Shown here: positions 4,163 through 35,800 of the stretch, piece by piece
Layout: each line of letters begins with the position of its first letter
Position numbering within the stretch: position 1 is the stretch's first letter
Assembly (NCBI GenBank): GCA_051362555.1
Contig: CM120641.1
Span: 37,764,401-37,828,400 of the forward strand
DNA: 64,000 nt
DNA from: Lingula anatina
Lineage: Eukaryota > Animalia > Brachiopoda
Reading direction: 5' to 3'
Program-made: the position numbers and the translations under genes
Notes under the pieces: model-generated
Seen by the model: the letters and a program-made list of their open reading frames with translations, nothing else
What the model was told of the DNA's origin: nothing
Database searches by the model: none

Positions 4163-4744
4163 TTAGTAAGCACTTGGAATATTTTCACAATAGTTCTGTT
4201 CTCCATCCAGACTTTCAGAATCAGAATTAATGTACGTATGTGGCATAGTCTTTGCCAATAGCTCCTGTAAAGTCTGTATATAGGTCTGAGCCATTTGAAG
4301 AGTTTCATACTTGGATAATTGTTGTTCTCCCCCTCCTATTTGTGGGACCACCGCCCTCAGCTGGTCAAACGCGCTATTTAGACCATGCATTCTGCGCCTC
4401 TCCCGAGCGTTTGCGGCCTCCCGTTTCTTGCGCTGCCTTTCGTCTTTTGGGGAGACAAATTTTGTTGGTTTCATTTTTCTCTGGGTCACTTTTAGACAAG
4501 TTCTTTCTCTTGAAGGTTGGCACTCGGTTTTGGTTGACTGTGTGTTTTCTTTTCTTGATTCTTCTGTAACTGTTAGGCTCGGTTCCTCCCAAAATTCCAA
4601 TTTGCTGAGAAACTGCGGTGGCAGACTTTCCATTGGTGAATTTCGTATGGCAAAGTTTGTGCAATCCAAAGAATTGTCATTGTAGACATCTTCTCCCATC
4701 CACGTTGTCGCAATATATTCATCGGTAAAAATATCGGCAAACAT
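4163..4744 (-). CDS. Atonal/amos (ATOH1/7-class) proneural bHLH transcription factor, intronless, ~193 aa
   Basis: bHLH '[29 protein letters not shown]...[21 protein letters not shown]' carries the atonal-family [11 protein letters not shown] signature. First ATG is at 4744 (the ORF track starts at an upstream non-ATG codon). TATA-like TATATTAA on the - strand at 4875-4882. Confidence 0.92.
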
Positions 4745-6341: not shown

Positions 6342-6527
6342 ATGTTGGTAGATACCCCGGTACATGTACGGCTTATAAGTAGTCATGAATGTTTTGTATT
6401 TCAAATGCTAAACTCGCTTAAAAACGACTAAGCGTGATTGAACATATTTGATTTTCAAATCTAAATAACAAAACAAAACAAAAAATTAATTTCCATCAGT
6501 TCTCTCAGTCTGTGGTCACATATTTGC

Positions 6528-6924
6528 TTAGCTGTACTGGGCAGTGTTGGACCCACGTCTTCTGGCCTGGAGCTCGTAGGAATGACTGAACTGGTCGTCG
6601 AGGCATCCTTCGGGGGTATCATTGTATCCTCCGATCCTTGTCGCTTTCAAAGAAATAAGAACAAAAAAGGCAAAATTCACGAGGGAAATCACAAAGAAAG
6701 TTATGAAGTAGTAATCCAGATGGAAGAATATTTCTGTCCTTTGGTCTTCTGGGTAGCATGAGGTGGCTCTGCCTTCTGAAAGATCAAATGTCAAATAATT
6801 AATATTATCCATATTTTTGTATATTTTGATTTCTTCTGTTTGTTTACTGGTAAATGATAATGTAGATTATTCATCATATCTAATATATCATTGCTTTTTT
6901 GTAATCAATTCCAAGAAATCGCTG

Positions 6925-6972
<48 letters not shown>

Positions 6973-9900
6973 ATAAGGTGAACGATACAGACCTTTCTCG
7001 AAGACATAACGTGAAATCTGGTACAAGATTTGCATTGCGAAACTCCCAATTCCCATAGCAGCATACCATATCCCTACAGCTAAACCCGGTAGAGCTCTTG
7101 GAACTAAACCATAGGCAAACTCCAGACCTAAAAAGGAGGGTGATTGGGAATAAAAAAACTACACGACAAATTAATGTCCTCGACTAATAAAGTTAGTTTT
7201 TATATCCAGGAAAAAAGAAAAAGTTTATACTAAATCATACGATAAAAACATGTTGTACAACTTGGTGTGCAAGTTTTTTATGCTACTTATTCAATTTATT
7301 CATTAATTATGAATAAGGGAAAGCAACTTTGTCAGCGTCACGGCCCCATGATCCCACATTACTAAATTCAGAGACATACATGTAGAAAAAGAAGAAGAAG
7401 AAGAAGAAGAAGAAGAACTTTGCATTTATGAATATCCCTGAAACGTTTATTTGACAGATTCACCTGCAATGGCGACGAACACTTGGGACAACCCAAGGAG
7501 CAGAAAGATGGGAGCCTGGACGTGTACTGTTAAGTTTTTCACAGGTTTTGGTCGCGAGCAGCGTCCAAACTCGACCATAACTGCGACCAGTGACGAAAGA
7601 CAAGCAATGGCCAGTCCTGCGCCTAATATTTAAGAAAAAACAAAATAAAAAAAGTTCTTCAAGTGAGTTTTCACTGATTAACATTTGATCTTTCCTTTAT
7701 TACAGCAAGCACACATGCGTAGCTTTACTCTTTAGTTTCGTCACTGTTGCACTGAAATTCAATACTGAAGAGGAGAAAATTAAACCCAGTTTGTACTTAT
7801 TACCCGTATTGGTCAATCCGCACTCCATAAAGGAGTTAATAGACTTAAGACTTAACGATGTATGTCTCGTCCTATTGCGTTTGGAGCGCTCTTACATTAC
7901 CACCACCACCACCACCACCACCCCCTATACCACCCCCACCCATAATCCACTTCATAACGGCTCTCTTATAGACTTCATATTCACCTATCTTGACTAGCAA
8001 TCTGTTCGGTTTACCACGCTTCCTTTCAATCAATGGGTAAATGACATAGAAACACAATGGGATCATCGTCAAAACCGCCCCAATATTGTACGTCTGCATC
8101 CACAGATGGAGCGACAGGAGCTCGTCATTGATGAGAATGTCATGGTGAAGAAGGAGCTCTGCTGCTTGGACGTCATATACACCAAATATCTGCAATTTCA
8201 ATTAGATAGAATAAAATAAGTGCGCAAACGAAACATTTAAATTGGTATAATATTGAAAGAAATCATACTTATAACTTGGTGTTAATTAATTCCATATCAA
8301 AAGTCAAGACCTCAAAATTTTGCTACCAGAGAAAAATCATCAAAACTTAGTTAAAGGGATAACAACTCTTTGAATGAGATCTATATATCACAATAAAACA
8401 TTGTGAAGAACTCATAGAAATATGATATACCACAAAAACGGCAGTTATAACTATTATTCTGAAATCTGAACTTGTCTTTAGACCAAGTGACCTCCATTGA
8501 TGACTTTACTCTGTTATAATCTCTTAAGAGATTTAAGAGATTTTTAGAAAAAAACAGGAACTTACTTTGAATGTAAAAATAGATTCATTAACCATTGGTT
8601 AGTATGGGAAAATTGTTGTTTACTCCAGGAAAATTCATTTTTGGCCAAAACGAAAAGTTATTATCCCTTTAAGTTATATCTAGAGATTACCTGAAAATAA
8701 TTAGACCAATATAAGATCATTGTTCCTTGTATCATGATGACCTTTAGGATTCTTTTGAAACGGTTTACATTTTTGTGTTGTATCTCTCGCTGTTGTGTCA
8801 GTATTGGTCTGATTTCTTGTTGTTCTTGTTGAATATCTGCAGAACCTCGCGAGTGGCGCATGATAGCGGAAAAGCTCCGGGACAAGGTAGTCCATTTTGC
8901 CGAATTAGTGTAAGAACTTTCGTCTTCTGATAAATAGAAATTAAAAATAAGAAAAAAAAACTTTTTTTTATTTCCTAACAGTCATTTTATTATTCCCACA
9001 AACTAGTTTATATTTGGTATCAAAATATTTGACAAAAAAGGGGGGATTCAGTCAATGCATTCCTTTAGTATTTAAAAAGTTGAAAATTTAATGAACATAC
9101 TTTTACTACATGGTTATATTAAACTTTACTTCATGCTTGATGAAGTTGTTTACCTTCGGCCTCTTCATTGCGGTAGAGCTTCCAACCTGACAGGAACACA
9201 ATTGTCGCAACCACGATTGCTGCAGGGATGACGAGGTAGCCGGCCCAGCCGTATGTCCGAAAAGATTCGAGAAACAATGCACACAAAGACCCAATACTCA
9301 AGGCAAAATAATACCTGAAATACAGATAAGCTTTCATATCGAAAACATACAGGAAAAATGAAGTGAGTGAGCCAGAATTCGAATAAACATTCGAATTACG
9401 AACTGTCAAAGATACGGTTTACCTGTAGGGTAATCGAAAAATACGCCAGCCAGTCACATTTTTAAGACAATATTATTATTAACTTCAGCCTTATTATGGA
9501 ATTTCATGATTTCATAATATTTTTTTTTTTTCATATCACTATAAGTTAAGGAGAGTCTTTATAAGCCTTTAAAAACTTATCTATAATATACCATAGTGTA
9601 TACGGTAGGGTAGGCCTACTCAACTTAGACCTAACAAAACGTACCTCATAGTCACTCTGACGATATGAATTCTCTTGATATATCGTTGCATCTGGGACTG
9701 AAACTCATGTCCGTCTTTTGATCAAACTTCCCTTCTAAATCTAACGACTCCACATAGATTTGTTAAAATATTTCTGTCAGTTATTGTAAAGGCTACGCCG
9801 CGTAACACGTATAGGCCTATCCTATCTCTTACCAGTGGAAAAACGAACTATTCCGTTTGCTACGGGGCGGACCCTGTTGGACACCAAGAACCACGATGTT

Positions 9901-10855
9901 GGCTCTGATTCCTCCCTCCGCCACCACCAACAGACACAAGGCCGCCACACTCAAATTTTGTGCCACGAGATGCTCTAATCTCTAAAACATATCAAAACAG
10001 AAATGTGTGTTATTTGTTCCCTTTTATTTTTAGATTAGCTGTACAACTGGCACATGATCCGAGCACAATTTCATCCTTTAAGATTTTAAAGGAACTGAAA
10101 AGTTCATGTGTGAGCGAGACACACACCATGCCCTATAAGCAGGGATACAGTTTTTTACTAAAGTCACAAATTGTGCGCTGGGCTAAATGGTGTGACTGTG
10201 ACTCACTAAAAGCAAAATCAAAACTTATTTATTAATATTTCATTTTATCTGTTTATTAAATTTTTTTATTAATCTATCTATTTTATTATACCCTTTTTTT
10301 TGGGGGGGGGAGGGGGGTATCAATATACTCACCCATATAGCTACGGCACATGGAATCAAAACTGATCCTAATAAAGTAATAAAATATAGTTAAATGCATC
10401 TTTGTAATATCTTAAAGTCGTTGGCGCAAACTTGAAAGAACTGTTTGTTTGTCGGCGTTTACATGTAAATAAAAATGCAAAACACTAGAATATACCCATT
10501 TAATTGTGATTTCCAATCTGTCCATCCCCTCACCTGCAATGAAAACAAGCAATGACACTAGAATAATATATTTCCTGGGACAAAGCATGTCCCCAAGCAG
10601 GCCACCAAATATCGGGAAGAAATAAGCAAACCCTTCAAAGACATTATCCACCACACCGAGAGTAATAGAGCTGTAGTTGAGGTACGTATTTCCAGTGTCC
10701 ACGTAACTAAGCTCCAAAACGCACCGCTGAAATGCCAGTCTCTCCAGGGCGACAAAGCAGAGGATTAATATATGAGCCTTATTCCAGCCGTGGCACTCAC
10801 TGCTACATGTGTTTCTTTCTGTTTTGTCATTTAAGCCAGGTTCTTCTATTTCCAT
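6528..10855 (-). CDS. SLC15/POT (PTR2) family MFS transporter, 9 coding exons, ~549 aa
   Basis: Exons (-): 10855-10534, 10367-10333, 9981-9833, 9314-9154, 8926-8691, 8189-7985, 7622-7464, 7127-6993, 6775-6528. All are GT-AG and the frame is continuous (1650 nt). Motifs: ALERLAF (ExxER region), FPIFGGLLGD, EGGIRAN..LG..Q, SFFHWYYFA, GLEFAY, HLDYYF. Confidence 0.88.
6927..6968. repeat. (CT)n microsatellite in an SLC15 intron
   Basis: Directly visible. Further simple repeats: (GAA)n ~7388-7416, (ACC)n ~7897-7922, (GT)n ~16061-16098, poly-A at 6301-6339 and 15298-15343. Confidence 0.9.
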
Positions 10856-12174
10856 TTTGTTTTGATACACATAACGCGTGTAAAATGCTTCTGTTGCAGA
10901 TGATCCGCAGTATAGATATGCATTGTTTTAGTGAGAATGTACAGTGCAAATGTAAATCTTATCCTGTGTTGATAGTGATAGTAATGACTATCAATAATGA
11001 ACGCTATATTTACACTGTCCTATTTGGGTAGATCCAGTGCGCTCACACAATAAGCTGAAAATATTTTTGGATAATATTTACGCACATACTGATCATTGTA
11101 CGGTCAGAACAACTGCATGTGTATATCACCAATTTGTTGCGATGAACTAGGCCAACGTTATTTCTATAAAACAAGAACGACAACCTTATGTTCCAAACCT
11201 TGTTTTTCATTTTGGTTTTTAAATACGTAGAAATGTATGACCTATATATATATATATGCTACAGCTTTACTGATAAGCATTTCACATTGGTTTGACACCA
11301 TGTTTCAGTATCATCATCATCATAACTTTTGGCGAACGATTAATAATAGAATGACACTGAATCATTAGACATATATATATACTTGAACTTGAATAATCTG
11401 TTAATTTCAAATATCTTATAAGAGCAGTCACGCATTCCCGGCCTCAGTTTAGTTTTACTCTGGTTTAAAACATGGGATAGAAGGAACGCATGTGATATAT
11501 AGGTTTACAATTGCAGGAACAGGTTTGAGAAACTTCAGATTGAAACCCGACAGAGTCAACAGATTTCTTACAGCAATACTGCTATGTTTCCACTACACTT
11601 CACCAGTTTGATTACACAGTCCTCTTCAGAACGAAAATTTCAAATGGTTACACTTTTTTCAAAACGTAAGGGGAAAATATTTGAAAAAGAGAAAAATACA
11701 CCTATATCACTTAGTTTTTTATTTTATTTTTTATTCAGAATCGTAAGAATCTTACCAAGACCGTAGTACAAATGTGTATAGAACTCCTTGACCTAAAATT
11801 CAAGAAGTTTCAGTTTCATTGTATCATTGACCTCAGTAATAGAATCTTACAGCGTCATATTATATTGAAAGTGACAGCAAACCTTATATTTATGAGACAG
11901 CCTTATGTCAGGTACAATTAAAATATTGTAAATCATCATTAACCTAAAAAGAGTTATACTTGTCTACAACCATAGAGACACTATACTAAGTGCTTTGCAC
12001 GCTACACGGTTCTCTTCCCTTGTTAGTGTCGTTTAATTTATTGGGCTATAAACTTATTATTTGTCATGCCTTGGGATTCATTAAAACTTTTGATTTATAT
12101 AAGATATAGCAAGCGGTAAATCTGGATATTCTTCCTGATAAGGTTTGGGGTGAAACAGTAGATATTGGAAAACA

Positions 12175-18635: not shown

Positions 18636-20888
18636 CTATTCTTCCTCATCCTCTCCCCCGTTGGCTGAGGCGGCAGAGCGATGTGACGTGTGTCCTGTTG
18701 AATTTGTCAGATTGGATGATCGTGGGATATAACTGCTGGACTTACTATATGAACTTACTGAAGACGGGGTATAATACTGAAACTGAAAGAAATAACAGGG
18801 ATATATTAGAGGCTGTACTAAATAAGATACCATGCAACAGAAGATATGAATGGTTTTTTAATACAGTAATCAAAAGCGTCACAGCAGTAAAATAATAGGG
18901 TTTTCTTTGCTGCAATTTTAAATCATACATTGTTGGTAAAAATGAAGCAAATAAAGTTCAAATCACTATTCTATTAATAAATTACACAAAAAGACATACT
19001 ACAAATTATACCAGTCCATGTAATCATAAACAATGTGTTCTGACATAAGAACTGTAACCAAATATGAAAAATACCTTCACCATCAGAAAAGGTTGAAAAT
19101 GTTATTGGGTTAATGTAGAAAAGGAAAGTTCACAAATTAGTCAATTTGCTCATTTGGCTATGCAACATACCAACAGACTTTCCATTCTAACCTTTATTTG
19201 ATTTTAAAAGTCAAACCATTCTTGTAAGATAACCCCTTCCATTTAACCACTTCTACTAATCCCCTTTACCCTCTGTGCCACTCATGCATCAATTTTATAT
19301 GTAAGATAATACATATATATGAACTTTCTTTCTGGCTTTCACTGTTGAAAAAAATCCAGGCACTAATTTCTAATTTGAAATATTCACAAAATAATTCCCA
19401 AATAAAAGACTAATACACCTCTGTACCAAAGATTTCACCAAGCAATGAACCAAGAAAAATGATGTATTTAAGACAAACAAAAATCAAAGAAAAAGAAAAC
19501 CACAAACAGCCTACTAACACCATTAAGAAAGCATTTAGGATGACAGTTAAGGCATACCACACATTAGGACAGCAATGGATTCAGTGACTCCTATTTTAGC
19601 TAGGGTCGAATTCAAGCCAGTCCAGATTAGGTCGCCAAGTGGATGGCAGGTTACGCTTCCTTTCTATAACTTCCACAACTTCCTATAGTACAAAAGTAGC
19701 ATTGAAGTGCTACAAAGGTCAGCAAAGGTGACACAGAATAAAGCAGAAATTATTACAATAGAATGGTAAGAAATCAGGAAAATTATAAAGGCAAGAAAAA
19801 TAATGAGGGGCCCTAACTGTGGTAAAAACCATCAGGCAAAATCTTGAAGTGAACAAAATTGGAAGTGAAAAATAAAAAAAGACACTGCAGTCCAGAATGG
19901 CTGAAAGATCCACAATGAAGTGACTCAATATTCTCAAGAAAAACAAGAGACAAAAAAATAACGATAAAATACAAAGAAAACACTAAGCCAAGCACAAAGT
20001 GCACAGAATGTAACAACAAACAAGCAAGTCATGAAAACCTTGCATAACAGTGCAAGCATGCACCGAGAGGGGAAAAGACTTACAAAGACAGTCAAATTGG
20101 TTAAAGCTTAGCAATTAATCAGTAGGTGTCTCTGAGCGACGGAAACTCCTTCTAACTCCTGCTGGTGCCTGTTTGGCTTGTTGTAAGAGCATGGATGCCT
20201 GGATGAAAGAAATAGGGTAGGAAATGCATGCTCAATAAAACAAGGTGTTGAGGTGAGAATGAGTCAACAAAACCCAATATCCAAGTTATGCTGGGGACGT
20301 GCAAGGTGAGGGTTTGGTTGACACAGGAGTACAGAACATCAGAATCAGTGGAAACAGTCTGAATTTCATTTGCATAACTCAACACTGTAACGGTTAAACT
20401 TCGAACATCAGACTTACAGACTACTTAAAATTCCTCAACCTGTCTGCTGGATCGTTTGACGGAGCTTTGTGAGATTGTGATAGAAGTACCGCCCTAATAG
20501 GTCAGGAGAGGATAGAGAATAAAAAGGTTGAGAATAGGTGATGCTGGTCACTTGCACAAACAACAGATGATCAAACTCCCCAGGACATGGGTTTGGTGGA
20601 GACACATGAATAGATGGTGGGTAGGTTCAAGAGTGGCCCCAATGGGGGAGGAGGGGGGGGGGTAATAATCAGATAGTGTCCCAAGATGCCACAGTGACAG
20701 GTCAACCTCTAAAGAGGATAATCAGAGATGAGAGTGTTGGAGTGACAAATGGTCCAAATCTTGGGGTGGATAGATTTTTTTCACAACCGGGCTTTTACTT
20801 ACAAGTCTTGTTTTTAATGTGAGGATTTTTTAACAGAGCTTGATGAGGTTCGCACAGTCTTAACTGTGACAACGGCAGAAGAACCGAC
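18636..20888 (-). CDS. Mhc: Mhc alternative non-helical tailpiece exons (4 stop-containing cassettes + terminal exon)
   Basis: Phase-0 exons: 20888-20803 [24 protein letters not shown]; 20493-20418 [22 protein letters not shown]; 20168-20084 [17 protein letters not shown]; 19682-19558 [28 protein letters not shown] (weakest); terminal 18782(or 18776)-18636 ...[13 protein letters not shown]. Each cassette has an AG acceptor and a GTAAGT or GTATGC donor. Confidence 0.72.
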
Positions 20889-23800
20889 CTAAAGTTCATA
20901 AATTAAAGGAATGTGAAGAACATATAAATAATTTTCTCCCCCAGTTGCTTGGACATGGTCGGCATTCTTTCTCTGAAGTGCATTTATCAACATATGTGAA
21001 GGTAGGGATACAATTCAAATTCAAATAATATAAAATCAGAATGAAAGTTTCTCAGTAAAATTGAAGAAATTAAAAAAAAAATTAATGCCTAATAAAGCAG
21101 AGACAAAAGCAGAAATAATTCATTTTGTGTCTCCGCACAGCCAAGATAAAGAAAGGTGTTTTATGTAAAATTGAAATGTGCAATCTATCTATGACTGTTC
21201 ATTTCTAGTAATAAATAGGGGTTTTAAATTAAAAAAAGAATAATGAGTCCAGATTTAAACAAAATACTGAAGAAAAATTACTTAATTAACAAATTATACA
21301 GGAAAGTTACTATAGGAGAATAAGAAATAAATGTGCAGAGAGTAATGTCAACTACTTACAGCTCCACTAGAGCCAGCAGATGATCTGCCTACGGAGACAG
21401 AGCTGCGGGACTTGGCGCGCATCTTGGACAGAGAGTTCTCTGCTTCATCAGCACGGCCCTCAGCATCCTCAAGCTCCTGCTGGACCTTGCGGTATTTAGC
21501 AAGGTTGACAGCAGCAATCTCCTCCTGAATGAGAAAATGAAGAATTGTTTAGCATGAATTGTTTTTTTTTGCAAAAAAGGAGCTCATATTTAGAAAATGA
21601 TGAAACAACTGATCTTGTACAAGTTCAAACTGATTTTACTTTTCATTTCAAGTTAAAGATAAAAAAGAAGCACAAAACATAAGATCCACAGCCTTTATAT
21701 AACAGATGATAATTTGCATGACTATAAGAACAAATGTACACTTTATTATATCAAAGTTTACTTACAGCCTCTTCCACTTGGCGCTTGTAGGTCTTGATCT
21801 TGGTCTGTAGTTTGTCAATGAGTTCCTGGAGACGCTCCATGTTCTTCTTCTCCTCTTCCTGTGCGAAAGCCAGCTCCTTCATGCGGCGGTCAGCCTTGCG
21901 TGCGTTCTTGTCGGTCTCAGCATGGCGGCGTTGTTCAGCATCCAATTCAGCTTCCAATTCACGGACCTAGAATTGCAGTGAAACTTTCATGTTGAATAGT
22001 GGCAAAATGGATTGAAATGTTTAAATATATTTAATATTTCAAAAGAATAAGATATAAGGTATAACCCCAGGGGAAAAAACAAGTTACTGATCTATTATCT
22101 AAACTATTCTTATTGTCAGAAGACAAGACAATGTTACTTACTCTCTGTTCCAACTTGGCAATGGCTTTCTTGCCACCCTTGAGTGCATTGCCCTCGGCCT
22201 CATCCAGGCGAACCTGCATCTCCTTCATCTGTGTCTCAATGCTCTTGCGGCTCCTCTCAATGCTTTGGCTGTGCTCTTGTTCAGAACGGAGTTCCTCAGC
22301 CAAGTGAGCAGAGTCAGCAGCAGCCTTCTTCATGCGCTCATCAGCAGCACGGATCTCATTGGCTTGTTCATCCAGATCAGCCTGCATGGCGGAGATGTCA
22401 GCCTCCAGCTTCCTCTTGGTGGAGGCAAGGTGCTGGCTCTGCTGGGTGAGTTCTGAGATGCGGTCCTGGGCATCTGTGAGTTCGTTCTCTGCAGCTTTGC
22501 GGGCTCTCTCAGCCTAAAGAAGAAAAGTCATTAATGACCAAGTTTCAACCTCTTGTAATTTTAAGTTCGATATAGGTTTAATTCCTTTCCATTTTGGATT
22601 TTTCAAAATTAAAATTTATTTCATATTTCATTTGGCCTAAAAGAATGTTGCTCAAAAATGAAATTCACACCTGTTCCATGGCAGTTCTGAGCTCTTCCAT
22701 CTCAGCTTGCACGGCGTTGGCACGTCTCTCAGCGCTCATCACATGCTCACGGAGCTCATCTCTCTGGTGGGCTTCATCATCAAGTTGTGATTGCAAGTCC
22801 TGTAGTAGAAGTAAAAAGAGAATAAAAACATTTTCCTAGTCATAAGATTTCAGTGAAATCTAAAATGTGAAGAATAGTACAAAACTCTTTTATTCTGATT
22901 TTGATGGTGGTTAAGACTTTCCATTCACAATAATCCATAGATTTCCATTTTAATGTGAAACATACCTTGGCCTGCTGTTGGAATCTCTTCACGTTCTTGT
23001 CAGCCTCAGCTCTTGCTCTGTTGGCAGCATCCAGGGCAACCTCAAGCTCGTTGATGTCCTGTTCCAGCTTCTTCCTCATGCGCATGGCCTCCTGCTTGCC
23101 CTTGGCCTCGGCATCGAGACTGGCCTGCATGGATTCCAGTCCGCGCTGGTGGTTTCTGCGGGTGTTCTCAAACTCTTCATCTTTCTCCTGCAGACGCTTG
23201 TCGATGTCCTGGCGAATGGCAGAGATTTCGAGCTGAGAGCGCATCACCTTGGCCTCTTCCTGCTCAAGAGCAGCCTCAGCCTCCTCCAGGGCAGCCTGCA
23301 GCTCTTCCTTCTCCATCTCGAGGCGTTTGCGGGCCTTCTCAACTTCATGGACATTGCGTCCACCCTCGCTGAGCTGATCTGTGAGGTCGTGGATCTCATC
23401 TGAAAAAGGTATGTACATTTCAATAATAACTGAGCAAAATATTCAATACTAACTGCTGTTTTACAGTAAATTATATATTTTTATTTTTTACTGATTTTGG
23501 TAATAGCCAAGGATCTTAGAATTCATGCCAGGTTAATCTTAGAAAGATATCTACCTGAGAGGTTCTTGTTCTCTCTGCGGACAGCATCCATGGCATCAGA
23601 GTGTTCCTCAATTCTGGCACGGAGGGTGAAGATTTCAGCAGAGTAGCTGCGAGCTTCACGCTGAGCAGCCTCAACCTCAGCTTCAAGATCCTTGATTCTG
23701 GCCTGGAATTCGGAGACGGTCTTGTCAAAGGAACGGTTCCTCTTCTCCATCTGCATGAGATTAGCATTGGCTCTCTCAGCTTCAATGGCCAGGTCTTCCA

Positions 23801-26800
23801 TCTCAGCACTCATTCTGGACTTCACCTTCTCCAGATTCTGTACCTTGATGTTGGCAGCATCCAGTTGGTTCTCAGCCTCAGCCAGTTTAGCAGCAAGCTT
23901 GCGCCTGAAGATACAAAGAATTATAAGTACAAATGTTTGGATATATTTACTTGCAGAGTCATTTGTACATATGGACTCAATTTCAACAAACTGATCAACA
24001 AAACCACTGCTTCATTCATATTCTATAAGTTTCTTAGTTTAAGATATGAATTTACATCAAATTACCATAATAAATTTGGAAAACTTTATAAAACATGATA
24101 AAAAGACTAAAAGAGAAACCAGATGACAAATTATGCATCTTTTGACTTACTTGGCATCCTCTAGTTCCTCAGCACGAGCGCCGCCCTCAGTCTCAAACTT
24201 GTTGCGCCACTGTTGTGCCTCAGCCTGGGCTCTGGCAAGGTGACGCTGAATGTCGGCCTTGCCCTCTTGTTCCTCTTCAATTTGGTCACGAAGGCTGTCC
24301 AGGTCAGACTGGAGGTTACGCACCTCACTGGCCAGCTTAGTTCTTGCCTGAGAGATTAAATTCAAATTTATAGTTTTTGTTTGTATAAATAATATATTTT
24401 CATAAGTGTTTGTGAAATCTAGTTGTATCCCATGTATAATTCTAGGTAATGCATTTCTGGTCTCTGAAGCAACTTGACTGCACATTTTACAATTTAACAA
24501 GACAATTTTCTCTACCTCAAACAAAAAGAGTATAATTATCAAACTGGCAAATTTTACTCATTTTTTCTCACGTTATATATTTATATGCTGTCACTACAAT
24601 ATTGATAAATAAGATATGTTACTTACTCTGGTCTCATCTTCCAGGGACCTCTTAGCATCATCAACCTGAGCCTGAATCTGTTGTTTCTGTTTCTGCAGGG
24701 TGCTGATGGTGTGTTCAGCCTCTTCCAGCTGGCGGCTGAGGTCGCTGGCTTCGCTGGCAGAACGGCCCTTAGCAGAGTTGAGCTCATTGATGGTGCGGGA
24801 GTGTTCATCGATCTTGGCATTGGCCTCGGACAGCTGGGACTCGAGCTGCTTGGTGAGCTTGTCAGCTGCAAGCTGTAGGGAAAGGAGATTGTTTAAGTAG
24901 TTTCTATCCTATTAAAGCTTGAAGTCACTGATTAAACAAATCATCAGTGAATTGTTCCATCAAAAATTAAGAATATTGATGTAAATAAAATTTGCTCTCA
25001 TATGGGAAAGACATGATTTAAAAGAATGACAACAGTAAAGCTACTTTCGATGAACAAATATATCCCCATTCGCCACTGCAAGCCATCAAATCCAAACAGC
25101 CCCCATGCAGTAATGTGAATAAAAGACTATGATGTAACAAAGAACAACTAGCACATTTATACTACCTTGGAGGATTCAACTATCTCCAAACTGTTCAACA
25201 AGTCTTCGCATTCCGTGCGCAGGTGCATGCACTCTTTTTCAAGTCTGGAATTACAGAATATCGCATGCAAATCAACACACAGCAAACTTTTTAAGATGAC
25301 TGATTCCTGACTTCTGGGAGAAAAAAAAAATGCTCACAGTACCTTATACTAACCCTGGTAGAAGGAGTTACCATTCCATCATGGTGTAACCTTTTTTCCA
25401 TCTAAAATTGGATCATCTGTCTTCCCCTGAAGACTGGTACTGCCTCATAGTCTGCCAAACCACATAAAACCTGTAACTCTAACCTCCCTCTCTATTACCC
25501 CATGCATGTCTGCATTCAAACTACATGCAATATCATCCATGACAAACATTTTACCTTGCTCTTTTTAACATGGTCTAACTGAGCCTGAACATCTTCCATT
25601 TCTGATCTCATTTCATTGCGCTCTTTCTCTACTCTGAAAGGGGACAGCAGGACAAAAGTAGGAACAGTAACAAAAGGATAGCACTGAGAAAGACAGAATC
25701 AAAATTGGACAAAAACAAATGATTTAATCAATTAGAAAAAGTAAGCATAAGATGTGTGATGAGAACTGTAAACTCTACAGAAAATAAGCTTTACAAGAAA
25801 AGAATTCATCTACTTAGATAAATCAAGAGAAATTATGAAACCGGAGTAAAGGTGACTAAAATGATAGGCTGATGTCTGGTAAATCACCAAAATATTCCCT
25901 AATTTAAGATATTATCAATAAGCTAAGATATGTTCTCCCTTCGCCAACATCATGTATCAGTTCTTCATATTATGAAGGCTTAGAATTATTTGATCTGTTA
26001 AATTCCTGAAAATGAAATTAACTTATAATCTACCCCTGCATCTACAGTCTGAGAGTTGGAAATTACTTGAGCAGAAACTTTCCATTTGATATACCCAATG
26101 TATCTATTTCCTATCTTATTATAATTATTATTATTATTATTGTCTACGCACCTTCCCTTCACCTTCTGGAGTTGGTCAAGTTGTTCAGAGAGCTCGTTGA
26201 CAGCATCTTGCTGCTTCTTGCGCAGGCCAGAAATCTGAGCTTCATGCTGAAGGTTGGCCTCTTCAAGATCACGACGGAGCTTCAGGATCTCCTGCTCACG
26301 CTTCTTGTTCAGTTCAACCTGTGAAAAACAATAGAACTATGCTCAAGACCAAGCCATACTAACTTAAAGTACAGGAAATTAAAATACATATAAAAAAGAT
26401 CTTTCATTAAATTCACAACCTTGTCTGTAAATGTACAAATTAACCAAGCTTTATACATATTGCTGTAGCAATTAAAACCATACAATTCAACCTACATTAA
26501 GTACTAGATACTTGAAATATCAAACACATTGTTAAATAGTAAATTCACCTCCTCTAGCCAATAGTTTAACAATGATTCATCCATATGAATCCTCAAAGTA
26601 ATCCTAAGTCTAATTATCTATGAATCTGTGAGAAGAACATGTCCATATAGTGAAAGGTTGAGCTCCTGCTAGTGCAAAAGGCATCATGTCTGTAGAAAAA
26701 GCCACCTCAACAATGCCAGACTCAGTTCTCATTGAAATCTCTTGACTCTGATAAACATCCAGCAATGGATTCCTTTCCCCATCAAACAACTTGCATTGTA

Positions 26801-29800
26801 CAATGCCTTATCTCCCCACCCTCCTCTAAGATTGCTGAGTAAACACACCAGAACTGAGCATTCTGAATGGCTATCTTTGCTAGCTTCTGCCTAGTTTTTA
26901 TCATGGGAGAAGTATATGTATAGAGAATATGGTGCACATCACTGGGTTGCTTTCTAGAAATGCAGACATTGATATCAAACTGGGCCAACACACCTCACTT
27001 CCAAGTAGGGTTGCAACATAAGGGGAATATAGAATGACTTAGGTCACTACTGCAGTGTTATTTTTATATCATAATTGGCAATTTTCTCTGGTTATTAATT
27101 TTTTTTTTTTAAGTTTGAAGGATAAATTATTGACAAGTTTGCTAGTTGTAATACTAATTAGGAAAAAGTTTCCTATCTTACCCAGAACAACACATGGGGC
27201 CAAAATCTCTGTCTACACATATATGCTGTGTATTTCAGCATTTTGGGCAAGTATATACAAGAAATATGTTAAGAATTTTCATTTTTCTTGCCAGTTAACC
27301 TTCAGTTGTCATAGTGTTTCAGAACCATGCCAGAGAAGTAAAAACAAAAAGAGAACCAGTGCCTACCTGAGCAGATGTGGCGCCACCAGCCTCATCCAAG
27401 CGCTCACTGAGCTCATCCAACTCACGGGCAAGTTCAGCGCGGGCCTTTTCAACCTGGTTTAAAAAGGTAAAAAACAATGAATTTTACAGAATAATTATCA
27501 TGTGGGTAGAACAATTTTTAAAGAAGATGGTTACCTGTGAGGAATATTCATAGACTATAATTTACTAATGCAAAATGGTAATATAAGTAGGAAGAAAAGA
27601 TAGCAAATCCAGGTGTATCTTTTTTTTTCTAAGGTGTTTTTCGCCATACATCTTAGGCTTACTCTTTCTCACAATGAAATACAAGCAATTTAACCAGGTT
27701 AACACAAAATTCACCTGGAATCAATTGGTATGTGAGGAAAAATGTTTCGCAAGTCCATACTGTAAGGTTACTGCACACTTCTATCAGATTACCAAATATA
27801 GAATCCCAACATTCCAAACTTATTAGTGAAAGCACTCTTTTTCAAGGTGAAGCAATACTCTTCGGAATGACTGAGCATATTTTTCACTGAACCATTAAAT
27901 ATGACATCTCATTGATTTCTGGACCGCAGATTAAATTCATATTTCCAAATTTCAGAGCTTCACCTGCAGTTTACATAAGCAACAATTTTGGGGACCAAAT
28001 TTCAATAATGATAAAAATAAAACTATACCTTTGATCTTGCTGCTCTCTCTGCCTCAAGTTCCTCCTCAAGTTCTTCAATGCGTGCCTAAAACAAAACATA
28101 TTAATTATCAAAATGCAAAAATATTCTTTACACCTGAGAAAGAAGAAAGATGTACGTTAAAAATCATTTCAAAAGATGTGAAATACTTCTCTACCAATAC
28201 ATCAAGTGTGGCAATTTACCTTACATTTTGTTATGGTAAACAAATTACATGCAGAGATATTAAACACATGCAAAAATAAAGGTAACAGAGACATTACTTC
28301 TAGCATGTTTTTGAGCCCTGGGGCCACCAAAGCTAAATCCTCCGATCTCCTTATAATCTGTTTACTTCTTGTAGTGAGTCTTGGATTTACAGGATTAATA
28401 ATTGAAGTCCTTGTGATGAGGGTTGGGTGACTCCTTATGGAACGGCCAACTTCATAATCCACATCAAAGTCAACTCCAAAATCATCATCGTAGCGCGAAC
28501 TGCCCCTGGTCTTTTTGGTTCTTGAAGAGCTTCTGGAGGACTCTTCCACTACTACACTGGAGGATTTCACGCCAGAGGTTTTTTTAGTCACTGCAGCCTT
28601 GGGAGGGGCACCTGTCTTTACATCTTTGCCACTTCCTTCATCAACCCTAACCTCTGAACTCGTTGCTTTATTAGTGGCACTATCCACCTCAGCTCCACTC
28701 ACTGAGAATATGGGCACATCTTCCACAGACTCATCAACCGAAACCTGCTCTGATGTTTTCTTTTCCTCTTTGGTGGCCATATTGTAGTACAGACAGATTC
28801 AGCACAGTTATACTCCGGTAGTAACAGCAGCACAGTATTACCTTACAAACACACAAGGTTTGTTGACAAGGAGTTGTAGTCCCTCGAAAAAATATCAAAA
28901 TACTATGTGATAGTTCCTCTAACTTGAAGAGAAGTTAGCAGAGGGCCGAAAACCTCCTTCCTACCAGTGCCTCCCAGACTGCAGTATGTGCCAGGGCAAC
29001 AGCTAGACAGACTGAGGAGTAGGTAAAGGTAACACTGAGAGCAAGAAAGTAATGGGTAATGGAGAAGATAGCTACATTCCTTGTGTGTTTGTGGGAAGCC
29101 CACGGCCAGGGTTGAACTGGAAGTTTTCCCGAGGATGCTCAGGCTGCACCAACCAAAGTGACTAACTCATTCCAACATCTGGTGCCTTAAAAGGCCATTG
29201 CATATTTTTCTTTGCTAACATTCAGCTTTCAAGTTATAGGGCAGAGGTGAGAGGGTAATGCATGTTAAAGGATAATGTGCAGCCATCATGTATGAATTAC
29301 AGTAGCTTTGCTACTGGATTCACCCCAGTATCTTTTCCTTATCATCCACTTCCCTGTTATGCATCTTATCATTAAAACAAGATTAGTTAAAGGTCAAATT
29401 GGAATATGGAAAAAGAGCAATATAACCCGAAAAAATTCTGAGGCACCATACAGTTCTGGCAACATCATCATCATATATTCTAGAAAGCTTGCCAAAATCC
29501 AAGGTGAAATAGTTGTGTATGCTGGCTCTTCCCTGGATGTTTGTCTGGTATAGCCATTCTGAACCAGACTTACTAATACACATACATTCATCTTCAGGGG
29601 AGCCAGACAGCATTCAAAACTTTCATAGATTTCCCTTTTCCAAATTTAGTTATCTGGCAGCAAGCTGCTGAGAGATCAACACATTTTCTCCCACCTACAT
29701 GGGGTCAGAAGATAAGGTGGATCTGGTTTTCTAGGGAAAGGCTTTTCATTCTGTCCTCCAAGATGTCTATTTCTGGATACCGGTTTTGATGGCAAATAGA

Positions 29801-32800
29801 AGTTAATCATAATAATCCCAATAGCAAATGTAATGTAGAAATCTTGTTTCTGAAGTAGATGTATATACACATCTTCAATAGGATGGGTTAGTTACATGCT
29901 CCACACATGTAGTAATACTATGTTTGATTTGTCTATAGATAAATGAGCACTACTAGTAAACTTTCCTAGCCTCCCTCCCCCCCCCCCCCCCCCCCCATAA
30001 AAAAAGTAAATATAAATTGTTAAAAAAGGAAAACTATCCATTCACTTTTAACAGATATTTTTCAAATTTAATGGATTCTCAAAATTAATGCCTTATTCAA
30101 TTTTGGTTCATTTGTTTACTTAAAATGGTTCAGTATAGTAAGTCAAATTATAGTTCTAAATGTTTTGTGCTACTTATTGGTTACACAATTTTAAATGTAC
30201 TTAGGTGATTTTACTTTAATATCAAATAATTTACTCTCATTCAAAAACTCACAAAATTTTGATAACTAATTTGAGAAATTCTTCAATCTAGACAAAAGAA
30301 TGATTTTTTTAAAGAACTAATTTGTAAAACATTTCAAAAACATCTGTCACATCCAGCTGTGATAATGCTAGCATGTTGAAATTCATATTTAAAAATTCTG
30401 TTCAATATTTCCACTGTCCTATATCAACAATCTATCTGTAGTCTGGGAGTATTTTCATTAATTAAAGTGTTACTTAATCTCTTTAAGGAGGGGCAATGCA
30501 TTCAAGAAAGTTTACCTGAATTATCATCTCATTCTGATAAGTCACATTCAATGGATGAACATATTCAGTTCATAAGAGCAGATTAAGATAAGAATTAAGT
30601 CCTTTGAGGAGATATAAGAGCTTAAACTGAACCTTAAATAAACTGAAGATAATTGTTGTTCTCTGGTGTAGAGCTGAATGAATTTTGTAAGATTTGTTCA
30701 AGGGACATGATTCTATTCTCACAAATTTTAATTTCATTATAATTGCAAAAAAAAAAAAAAAAAAAAAAAAAAACTCAGTCTATATTTCTCTTTTATGTAA
30801 CTTAAAAATGATTAAAGACCTTTGCATGAATTGTTCCGTCAATAATATCATTCAAGTACTAGTTTGCACTTCAAGATGACTTTAATTAATCACACATATG
30901 GGATGCACTGTATGTTAGATCAATCTGTTTTATGGGGAAATAGTGTGAGATAGTCAGGTTCTAAAGGTAGAATTTATAGGTCAGATCAGACTGAAACAGT
31001 TTGTGTAGCAGGCAAAAGAATTTACTGATATTGTCAAGGTGACAGAGAATAGAGAGTGGTGGTAGAAAATGTAAGAAAGTGTGGGTAGATAAGAAACACA
31101 GCACTCCAGATAAATCTCTTTATTCAAATCACACAAATAAGACACAAACAAAGAGACATAGACAAAGCTACTGGTAGGCAACACATACATACGGCTATCT
31201 AATACCACTTCAAGTCAGATCAGCTACTGTTTGGGATGTTAATGTCACACAAAATCAGAAAGGTAATGTAAGTATGTCACTCATCATAAATCACCCTGTT
31301 GTATTAGAAGAGAAGTACTTTTCATCCCTGTAGAATTTTGATTTTTTTAAAAAATACTAATTAAATGACACTTTAACTGTGTGTAATGAAGAAGGATGAT
31401 TGCAAATAAAATGCCTTTCACTGACCTGGAGTTCCTTGATCTTCTTCTGGAGTTGGGAGACCAGGTTTTGTTCATCCTCAAGCCTGGAGTTCAGGCCGGA
31501 GATCTCAACATCCTTCCTGGAAACCGAGAAAGGCAAAACTTGTAAAAATTTCTGCAAAATCTGCGGATAAGTGGGTGTCAATTTTCAATATTGGCAAAAT
31601 AATTATTATGGATTATAAAAGTATCAAAGAGCAGAACATTTTAAATGGGTATATGACTAAAAAAATTGTAAAATCTTACCTTCTGACATTCTCTTCCATG
31701 TCACGTCTGACACGCTCAAGTTCCTCAACATTTTCTTGTGTCATCTTCAGATCTCCCTCCAGCTTGCGCTTGGATTTCTCCACATCGGCACGCTGTTTCT
31801 TCTCACGCTCAAGGTTATCCTCCAGCTAAAGACAGAAAGAGAAGGCATATAATTTCAATTTTATACAACAATTAATTCATCATAACAGTATTCTTTGGAT
31901 ATTATAGAAGAAAATCTAGGAAATGTTCATAGGGTTTTATGTTAGCAATAATGATCAATTAGGCTAAATGTGTTTATTTAAAAACCTGATCAAATTTAAC
32001 TTAATGATCAAATATTCAATTATTCAAGTCACTTAAAATCTCATTTTGATAAACCAAGTCTTAGTATATCCCTACCTCGTCCAAGGTCTGTTCCAGTTTC
32101 TGCTTGAGTTTGTTGAGGTGGTTGCATTTGTCCTCTTCTGCCTGCAGTTTTTCTTGTGTTTGTTTCAGGTTCTCGCTTGTGTTCTTACCCTCCTTGGTCA
32201 GCTTGGCAATCTGTTCATCTTGTTGGGCCATTTCGTCCTGGAGAGTCTTGATCTGGTGATCCTTGGTCTGTTTCTCTTGTTCAGCCTAATAGCAAAAAAG
32301 GAAAGGTTTTATCTACACTTTTGTAAGTGGTTGGCAAATTCTAAGTTGTTTAATATCAGGGTCTGGTTCAGTTTCAAAATGACCAGTTATTACCAGCTGG
32401 TGATATATCTTTAAATTAAATCAAAAGGTTAAAATGTATTTGCAATACCTAATGCAAATGCAATGGTTCTAACAATAATTAGTTCTCAAAGTTCAACCCA
32501 CCTTGGCAAGAGACTGCTCAAGATCCTCAACATCCTTCTTCAGTTCCTCAGCCTCGGCTTCCATCTTCTTCTTGATGTTCTCAAGCTCTGCAGCAGCGTC
32601 TTCCTCATCCATGAGGCGCTCTTCCATTTCCTTGATCTGTGCTTCATAGTCGACCTTCTGGGAGATGAGCTTCTCAATTCTCTCCTCAGCATCAGCCAAG
32701 GTGTCCTAAAGATATTTCATTTTCTTTATAACATGGGTCAAAAGTACATTAAAAATTTTGCTCCCTTACTCAGACTATAGTCAACATCAAAAGAATTTGC

Positions 32801-35800
32801 CATTTTAGAAAATGAAACTGGCAGGATTGTTTTAAAAAAATTTATATATCACATGTTCTTTAGTACTCTGAACAAGTTTTTATTGCAATTTTAAGTCGGA
32901 AGTTGTATGTGTTTGGTTTCCCTACCTGCTCAGACTGCAGTTGCAAGAACATGTCATTCTTAGCCTGCAGCAGAGTGACATTTTGCTCTTCAAGTTCCTT
33001 CTTCAGCTTCTCGAGCTTGGCAAGGTCTTCCTTGCACTTCTCAAGTTCCTCTTCCTTCTTCTTCATCTCATCCTCAGCACGGGCAATGTTCAGCAGAGGC
33101 TTCACCTAAACATGACAATGAAGGCAATTTTCAATATCTGGCTTGCAAAAGAAACGATATGCTATAAAGAAAATATTCATCTCTTTAACTAAGCACTTGT
33201 GACAAATCCTCCCACAAATGCAAATTTTGTGCCACTATAATATCATTATCCAGTAACCTACACTAGTTCTAACTTCAAGGCATTTGCACTGTTTCATTTC
33301 TAATGAGTCCTCTTCGTCCCCACTTTCAGTAATATACAGAGGTTCCAGTTCTTGATCATCTACATCGCAATCAACTGATTCTAATATCCAGTCTAGTTCA
33401 GATAATATTGCATCTGTTTGGCAAGACCCCATTGTTTCATAGTTTCTCTCAGTTAACCATCCATGAGTGCTTAATTCGGTCACAGCATATTACATAAGTA
33501 GCAAGATATGCAGCCTTTCAATGAAGCAATGTCTTGATCAGGTAGCCACAATAAAAATACACCTGCAACCTCTCCAAGACAATAAAATAACTTGTAAACA
33601 CTGCAGGGTATTTGTGGAGACTATAAATGAACATCACTTTACTCTACTGTGGAGAAGGCCCGTACTATGGGACCCAGTCTCTCCTATTGACAAAGAAATT
33701 AATGGGGTATATGGCCACTTCCTTTGCCAGCAAATGAGGAACACAAATGGGACTTATCACAGTCAACAAGCTTGTTCAAAGATAACATCTACTCAATCCA
33801 GTCAATAAACAAACCCCTGCAGGTCACCTTGTGTCCAGGTGTGTGGGGAAGTCATTAAGTAAAGCAGTGGAGGAACCTAATTGATAATAAATACTGTCAA
33901 CAAAGGGGCTTGTAAACATGATAGCATTGATGGTAGACAATAAGGTAAATGGGAGGGGATTATGTGGATGTAGATAAACCAGGTATGGACTTGATAAACT
34001 GCCGAGTGAAAGATATTCTTCAGTTGTGCTCTTGAAGAGGGATTGGAATCATTGCTCTTTTTTATTTTATCTTTTTTTCCTTCTTAATTTTAAAGAAGAT
34101 ACTCACTCTGGTGTACAGCTTCCACCACTGCCAGTTGCGGAGCTGCAGGTACTTGCGAATGTTTCTCTGGATGACAGACAGACCAACTCTGAAAAGTGGA
34201 GAAATGTAAAGGTTAATATCAACAAATCTTAAATTTCATTAAATAGATAAATGATTTGAATGAAAAAAAGTATTTCAGTTGATTAATCAATTTTAGTTAA
34301 GTTGTGAACTTGTGTATAGTTATAACAACTTAAAATGTATATATAACACATTAAGTGAAGACTACATGATCCATTCTAATTATTTCCAATATAAACCCCA
34401 CCCCTTCTTACCTCTGGTCTTGCAGTTTCTTGTATTGTTTGCGCATGATGTAGCCACGGATGTGAGCCTGGAACAGGGAGATGATCTTGGAGAGACGCTC
34501 ATCACGGAGATCCTCAAGATGACCTAGGACACCAGCACGGAAGAAGACCTTGGTGCTGCCAAGACGGTACTCATTCTCATCCAACTGCAGAGATTCCAGG
34601 ATCTTCTGGGAGACAAGTTTGCCCTCCACGAAGCCCTGGGGGATGGCATTGGGAGCCAAGATGGAGTATCTGCAAGTGACAAACGGCAGGTAAACTATGG
34701 ATGAATGTCAGGTGTTTTTCTTGTTGATGATACCAAACTATACATTTTGACTTACTTCAAGAATATAACTCAATAAAAATTCATACATCTTGAACATAAA
34801 ACTATATGAAAAACTGTTTCCTGAGATTCTTCCCTACCCACCTCTGCTTGAATTCAGAGTAGATCATCCTGTTGGGGAAACCTTTACGGCAGATACGGAT
34901 ACCCTCAAGTACACCATTACATTGCAGCTGGTTCATCACAAGGAAGGAGTCAATCAGACCTGGAAAAAATCAAATGAACATTTTTTCAATAAGTCTACAA
35001 AAACCACTTTTGGGATAATGACTTGAAGATTAAAAATTAAAAAATACATACTTAAACTTTACACTTGTATTTTGCTTCTTTGTATGAAATATGACAATTA
35101 ACAGATTAAAAAGTACACTGCAATATGTGTGAAAAGAAATAGTAAGAAAAACACATGACACACAACATGCAAAGACAGTTTTCCTTTAAAGTTTCCCAAG
35201 ATCATAATAAAAAGCCAGACTATTCTAACTCTCAAAATCACACATTCTCCACCCTCCCCAAATTTTAAAGCTTCAAGATATGCCTGATAAAATAAATTTT
35301 GACAGGACTAAAGAAAAAAAAAACCGCTCAACTTTTAAAACCACCCATGTTTTATAAAAAGAATAACCTTTCTCCTTATAACTACCAAAATGTAAAATGT
35401 ATGAGATAGTGAGCTAGACTGGTCATCATGCAGCACCTGACCACTGTACAGAATGGTTGGACACATCAAGACACCAGGTAACACAACATCTACTTCTGGT
35501 CACCGATGAATGATGTGTCCAACAGCGGTGGTGGCTGCCCAGTGGTCAGGGATGTTACCTGGTGTCTTGACTTCATTAGGAATAATACACCTGATGAAGT
35601 GCGGCTGAGTGCTGCGTAAGTTGGTCATCAGCTTATTTAAACTCTCCTGTGAGTAGGTAGGTGTGTGGTTGGGTGGGCAGAGGGGGAGACAAAGAGAAAC
35701 ACAAGGTTAGTGTCTAACAACAAGGAAAAAAAGGTAGTTTATGGGTAGAGCCAAATATTAATTAAGTCATGCTGAGCACACATGGGAAAGTACAGCACAG

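Follow-up and report, generated by a model that had tools for sequence, protein, structure and literature searches.

Does the gene for muscle myosin heavy chain (Mhc) in this stretch of DNA encode, apart from the motor, a headless protein that retains the full rod? We addressed this question in the window, i.e., the whole stretch of 64,000 nucleotides that was analysed. The earlier note had drawn attention to an acidic open frame in the intron at the head/rod junction, and had suggested that the locus may encode both kinds of headless product, catchin and a full-rod form. RNA evidence was taken from eight of nine raw-read runs, denoted here X1 to X8 and assigned by species label; 6% of each of X1-X6 and about 25% of X7 and X8 were used. 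X1-X3 represent one study, and X4 and X5 a second one; X4 and X5 are muscle-like, and X1-X3 are poor in Mhc. The features are as follows.

About 59140 to below 21360, minus strand: muscle Mhc gene, one within the window, with numerous groups of mutually exclusive head exons.
34107..34190, minus strand: last head/neck exon, skipped in the headless form (X2 depth 0).
33106..34106, minus strand: host intron at the head/rod junction, 1,001 nt, phase 0 (canonical joint with 5,427 reads in X4 and 261 in X7).
33262..33640, minus strand: alternative first exon of the headless, predicted full-rod transcript, placed by RNA depth; its 5' end is approximate, about 33630-33700.
33625..33630, minus strand: TCATTT, a match to the initiator pattern TCAKTY, at the place where read depth stops; a weak signal, with 3 matches within the host intron.
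33393..33495, minus strand: five upstream ATGs (at 33495, 33488, 33464, 33460 and 33440) with frames of 1-15 codons.
33262..33432, minus strand: 57-codon coding part for the acidic N-terminal peptide, with its ATG in strong context; translation presumed.
33106..33261, minus strand: GT..AG intron of 156 nt, removed in the headless transcript (joint 33105^33262).
32926..33105, minus strand: first rod exon, with an acceptor common to the head exon and the new exon.
21360..32705, minus strand: remaining rod exons, about 1,045 codons, with RNA joints down to 27451 and the rest predicted.
28298..28780, minus strand: catchin first exon of 161 codons; it joins the rod exon at 28085, an entry point 277 residues into the rod.
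About 6500-10900, minus strand: putative multi-exon peptide transporter gene, recognized by eye.
4169-4744, minus strand: single-exon bHLH gene (Pfam HLH, E 1.7e-18).
About 320-880: tandem repeat array with recurring translations.

The frame is present as the earlier note had described it, at 33432-33262 on the minus strand: it contains no stop, begins with MGSCQT, sits in the intron that separates the last head exon from the first rod exon (34106-33106), and runs up to a phase-0 GTAGGT donor that keeps it in frame with the rod exon beginning at 33105. It is indeed very acidic, with 17 Asp/Glu versus 3 Lys/Arg in 57 residues. The length of the product, put at about 1,210 aa in the earlier note, was recomputed as about 1,185-1,200 aa, i.e., 57 residues plus about 1,105 rod residues plus one candidate last exon of 22-34 codons (the last exons are predicted). 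The start ATG at 33432 has A at -3 and G at +4, the best context among the ATGs of the exon; an in-frame ATG at 33297 (Met46) has G at -3. The frame that begins at the upstream ATG 33440 overlaps the main start out of frame, and a sixth upstream ATG, at 33634, lies at the edge of the RNA-covered region. A tblastn comparison of 59140-35557 (minus strand) found mutually exclusive head exons, including 2 copies near 57900, 6 copies of the TYSGLF exon (52938-48785), and further clusters toward 35557 of 2, 2, 3, 2, 4 and 2 copies. Two exons, at 25633 and 25245, are likely alternatives for the hinge, and the three predicted candidate last exons at 20888, 20493 and 18740 (minus strand) encode Ser/Arg-rich tailpieces of 22-34 codons; alternative last exons are likewise reported for the Mhc genes of Capitella and Lottia.

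The splice junction predicted in the earlier note, 33262^33105, was found in the RNA reads: nine reads with seven different starts in X1 and five reads with four starts in X3 (14 reads and 11 starts), all of them from one study. The same joint had a count of 0 in X4 and 0 in X7, and the canonical head-to-rod joint had four reads in X1 and none in X3. The alternative donor at 33274, also put forward in the earlier note, was rejected, as it is absent among the joints listed and scores 4.6 bits versus 8.6 bits for 33262. The depth over 33251-33550 was 9-12x in X1 and 5-11x in X3, and tapered in the 5' direction to about 3x at 33551-33625, about 0.2x at 33626-33700 and 0 at 33701-34075; in X2, the new exon was covered at 3.5x and 2.1x per bin. 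No joint into the new exon is found among the joints listed for X1, X3, X4 and X7. Because of this, and because the depth fades near 33630-33700, the new exon is most likely a first exon with its own start. A cassette exon in full-length Mhc was rejected, given that no incoming joint is listed and that head depth is near zero where the exon is expressed. A 5' extension of the rod exon in the Drosophila manner was rejected because the acceptor TAG is an in-frame stop, and a repeat-derived exon because no second copy exists within the window.

In X4 and X5, the new exon is covered at about 1x, with flanking intron bins at zero; therefore, this signal does not come from unspliced RNA, and intron retention was rejected on the same ground. 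The rod is covered at about 6,000x in these runs, which argues against abundance of the isoform in muscle-like runs, where the new exon amounts to about 0.02% of Mhc depth. The rough levels of the new exon are 3-6 RPKM in X1-X3 and about 1 in X4/X5, where the rod is over 5,000. The depth on the new exon was zero in X6, X7 and X8; the zeros of X7 and X8 were given no weight, because reads as divergent from the window as theirs can be lost at the 95% identity filter. Over 27301-34750, X7 and X8 differ from the window at many fixed positions, among them, in X8, a 3-base deletion within the catchin exon; this suggests that a diverged population or a cryptic species carries the same label.

In X2, the last head exon is uncovered and head joints are missing, and the successive rod joints have 9, 20, 4, 4, 3 and 2 reads, reaching 27451. 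These joints are not explicable by catchin, because all but one of the six are located upstream of the point where catchin enters the rod. Head-free rod transcription in X2 extends to at least 27451, and the rod 3' of 27451 is predicted only (RNA coverage was followed in short reads as far 3' as 27301). The X2 depth falls about fourfold past exon 32285-32076, and hence some transcripts may be short. In X1-X3, the depth over rod exons 2-3 (32076-32600, minus strand) also rises two- to fourfold, an X2 joint there having 20 reads versus 4 for the next one, and a weaker peak, about 1.5x, is present in X5/X6; the rise may reflect a library bias, as the exon is A-rich, or else another internal start or transcripts that end early. 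At 34505-34700, antisense-direction reads reach 10-14x in X1, over a head exon and into the intron; they mostly share one start and are possibly duplicates.

The exon is real and is spliced into a motor-less Mhc message, as the reads of X1 and X3 confirm for the transcribed intronic exon and the joint that the earlier note had proposed. This headless message dominates in the Mhc-poor samples and is near-absent from the muscle-like ones, a pattern that the earlier note had not predicted. Thus, at the RNA level, the evidence for the isoform comprises the exon, the joint, the frame, the sample pattern, and head-free rod transcription to 27451.

Is the frame coding? It is open for 76 codons before the donor, and the other two frames have 5 and 7 stops. 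We compared its composition to a background of 1,044 overlapping open 57-codon windows taken from 27,730 intronic bases. The 17 Asp/Glu residues compare with a maximum of 8 (mean 2.3) in these windows, and the 23 codons with G in the first position compare with a maximum of 19 (mean 7.9). None of 20,000 base shuffles reached 16 Asp/Glu; this acidity test is partly post hoc, as the frame was originally chosen for being acidic. Length alone is not rare, since one of 16 equally strong intronic donors is preceded by an ATG frame of at least 57 codons. The GC3 of the frame is 0.28, an intron-like value, versus 0.63-0.67 in two rod exons and 0.41 in the catchin exon. Three read variants at 33366-33370 (one silent and two missense), carried by 8 of 10 reads in X1 and 4 of 10 in X3, leave the frame open. 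Judged by its composition, the 57-codon frame looks coding; translation presumably begins at ATG 33432, preceded by the five short upstream ATGs.

The earlier note had also looked to conservation in relatives, which gave it no support: no homolog of the peptide was found, and the related loci are without the host intron. With the 57-mer as the query, phmmer against 1.84 billion representatives returned 0 matches of any kind, none of four candidates from a word search of longer proteins was real, none of 172 matches in a metagenome pattern scan was real, Pfam gave nothing, and BLAST against the fetched proteins and loci gave a best E above 1. These blanks are weak evidence, because the word search also missed the catchin exon, which is itself a clear catchin; the ESM Atlas likewise had no usable match for the catchin exon. 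No rod-only form with a new N-terminus was seen among the short members inspected in 10 named Mhc clusters (at most 15 members each), and clustering may hide such forms.

An alignment search with the first rod exon confirmed 132 metagenome stretches. In all 80 of the best 80, the frame is continuous through the head/rod junction; 16 of these are transcript-like (195 or more open codons upstream) and uninformative on introns, and 64 are genomic-looking, with the host intron absent. Many of the 80 loci are near-identical, and thus few taxa are represented. The alignments indicate that the host intron is patchy or lineage-restricted; the exon cannot be conserved in those animals because the host intron is absent. 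It is argued in the accessible part of PMC3912159 that Mhc introns are mostly old and were lost repeatedly, and an exon boundary in the head/rod region is described there for insects. A cut-off at the head/rod boundary in two distant lineages could therefore represent either convergence or an old intron lost in most relatives, both being viable given the age of Mhc introns and the boundary that insects share in this region. The rod is at best 70% identical to named molluscan rods. In a quick tree of 33 rows, made without bootstrap, with the careful search unfinished and no row labelled chiton, cephalopod or brachiopod, the rod falls outside a bivalve and gastropod clade (20 rows, SH-aLRT 100), in an unresolved fork with this clade and six further rows.

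The suggestion of two kinds of headless protein held at the RNA level only: both headless messages are spliced, in different samples. The exon at 28780-28298 is identified as catchin by its length, by its C-terminal segment, and by its splice to the ARIEELEEE exon; judged by eye, roughly 45 residues at its C-terminal end agree with the alignment of catchins in supplement 3 of PMC3912159, a source available in part. The catchin joint has 32 reads in X5, 17 in X6, 2 in X8 and 0 in X2. The new exon is not a catchin exon by the same standard, as it joins 277 residues upstream of the ARIEELEEE exon and bears no likeness to the catchin exon. In X2, a depth of about 2x was observed at the catchin 5' region (28705-29172, minus strand), with none over the rest of the exon and no catchin joint. 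In the portion of PMC4410989 at hand, myorod/catchin is said to occur exclusively in the catch muscle of molluscs. A spliced, expressed catchin with a rod outside the bivalve and gastropod clade would extend the range of catchin if the animal is not a mollusc.

What would the new message do? With modest preference, we consider that the intronic start exon produces a headless Mhc message that is likely translated into a motor-less, filament-forming structural rod of about 1,190 residues, most likely lipid-free. A promoter near 33630-33700 would be active in a cell type in which the main Mhc promoter is nearly off. Ribosomes would get past the five short upstream frames and initiate at 33432 through leaky scanning or reinitiation, so that the protein output would be low. 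The product would be devoid of ATPase, actin-binding head and light-chain sites, and, with S2 and the filament-assembly region kept, would form coiled-coil dimers and assemble into filaments or paracrystals through the intact rod. In place of the heads, the acidic, mostly unfolded 57-mer would serve as a spacer or binding tag. Its most amphipathic stretch is residues 7-19 (moment 0.46), which resemble the paxillin LD motif LDxLLxxL, a lead only; a single-sequence AlphaFold model of the 57-mer was uninformative (pLDDT 52). Where full-length Mhc is scarce, headless filaments or paracrystals could serve as scaffolding; at about 0.02% of Mhc depth, the isoform could play a part in muscle only within a small subset of cells. 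In Drosophila, headless rods are known to assemble thick filaments (PMC13322953, accessible part).

A different reading of the same protein is that it is myristoylated at Gly2 and palmitoylated at Cys4, tying myosin-rod filaments to the membrane, which we consider unlikely. Cys at residue 4 is a second-lipid site in dual-acylated proteins, and Cys4 could take such a lipid here. The start ATG with the best context in the exon and the expression in non-muscle-like samples are in line with this reading. The N-myristoylation proposed in the earlier note agrees with the basic consensus in Gly2, Ser3 and Thr6, provided that 33432 is the start; after Met removal, the consensus has Gly first and prefers Ser/Thr/Cys fifth, as stated in the part of PMC4692089 consulted. 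The same part lists Ala/Asn/Cys/Gly/Ser for the fourth place and does not list Gln, the residue found here. Residue 7 is Asp, where the pocket of human NMT1, roofed by three Asp, favours Lys, and NatA accepts negatively charged Gly-starting substrates (PMC7048800, accessible part). Because of Asp7, the myristoylation looks doubtful, even though the residue-7 preference belongs to the human enzyme and is not an absolute rule. The Src-family SH4 type of dually acylated N-termini is similar in the Met-Gly start, the nearby Cys and Thr at position 6; the 57-mer differs from it by Asp7 in place of Lys, the lack of a basic patch, and strong acidity, and its 17 acidic residues would repel an anionic membrane. 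Furthermore, Met-Gly is favoured anyway by the G at +4 of the start codon, and no conserved copy is at hand that retains the motif. For these reasons, a lipid anchor on the headless isoform has a low probability in our view, and so does the larger scenario in which an intronic exon specific to the lineage has allowed a lophotrochozoan to recruit its muscle myosin rod to a non-muscle cell type, where it would be a filament scaffold anchored in the membrane by myristoylation and palmitoylation. Should it be true, a single Mhc gene would yield a motor, catchin and a lipid-anchored rod, an arrangement reached independently of the Drosophila myosin rod protein (Mrp); in the literature searched, we found no description of such an anchor on any product of a muscle myosin gene.

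Two further explanations question the product rather than its lipid. A leaky tissue-specific promoter, of the kind common in germ cells, might give a spliced message that is functionless or barely translated, with a frame that is open by chance. The low level of 3-6 RPKM, the five upstream ATGs, the intron-like GC3, the one in 16 equally strong intronic donors with such an ATG frame, and the lack of a homolog in the searches are compatible with this; against it stand the frame-specific composition far beyond the intronic background, the single precise in-frame joint in two samples, the coverage of the exon in three samples from one study and in two from a second, and the position of the exon, which coincides exactly with the head/rod boundary that Drosophila Mrp uses, so that we regard it as rather improbable. 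The message could also be functional with another product, if translation started at Met46 (33297) or at a rod Met, or if an early end gave a short coiled-coil fragment. The context of ATG 33297 would permit this, the overlapping frame from 33440 could carry ribosomes beyond 33432, and the depth in X1-X3 peaks at 32560-32076 and then falls. However, the coding-like signal resides in codons 1-45, upstream of Met46, the peak of about 1.5x over the same A-rich exon in X5 and X6 is indicative of library bias, and rod joints run past the peak; we consider this reading very unlikely.

Mrp of Drosophila (Standiford et al. 1997, described in PMC3912159), an Mrp-type protein being a homodimer built into muscle thick filaments, is similar to the new isoform in that it is a headless product of a single muscle Mhc gene with an internal start. 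It has an N-terminus of 77 residues that is Pro/Ala-rich, whereas the one found here is acidic, and it is a major part of some flight muscles, as opposed to about 0.02% of Mhc depth in the muscle-like runs here. Mrp was reportedly first found in testis, and such an origin parallels the expression of the new isoform in Mhc-poor samples. In both cases, the junction is with the exon that immediately follows the motor and light-chain domains, and the N-terminus is short and unconserved. Mrp keeps the whole rod, and the new isoform is predicted to do so (RNA joints to 27451). For the new isoform, the exon has depth without head depth and its own start, placed approximately, downstream of the head exons, and the junction with the first rod exon, 33105^33262, is in phase 0. 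According to the available sections of PMC3912159, Mrp starts at the first exon past the motor and light-chain domains, and its N-termini are unconserved even between Drosophila and mosquitoes. The new isoform differs in having a separately spliced first exon, the insect case being a 5' extension of the rod exon (PMC3912159, same sections), and in belonging to a lophotrochozoan and not an insect, with catchin in the same gene.

Molluscan catchin/myorod (Yamada et al. 2000, cited in the accessible parts of PMC3912159, PMC12040844 and PMC4410989) is likewise a headless Mhc product with its own first exon. The catchin exon of the window, with its 161 codons, resembles it in position, length (156 residues in the part of PMC12040844 at hand) and C-terminal sequence. 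In contrast, the new isoform starts 277 rod residues further upstream, keeps S2, has an unrelated N-terminus, and shows the opposite sample pattern, with the new exon in X1-X3 and the catchin joint in X5, X6 and X8.

In the accessible portion of their paper, Kollmar and Hatje 2014 (PMC3912159) hold that Mrp isoforms were unpredictable outside D. melanogaster for lack of mRNA evidence. In the literature searched, mostly without subscription journals, no lophotrochozoan was found to have a reported headless isoform with the full rod; a genome annotation could already list the transcript. Our verdict, at the RNA level, is a headless isoform of the Drosophila Mrp kind, predicted to keep the full rod, in a lophotrochozoan in which catchin is present too. 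The spliced reads show an Mrp-type message from a gene that also makes catchin, and therefore two distant lineages have used the head/rod boundary to remove the motor. The enrichment of the message in samples nearly devoid of full-length Mhc makes the role of a headless muscle-myosin rod outside sarcomeres testable in a second animal.
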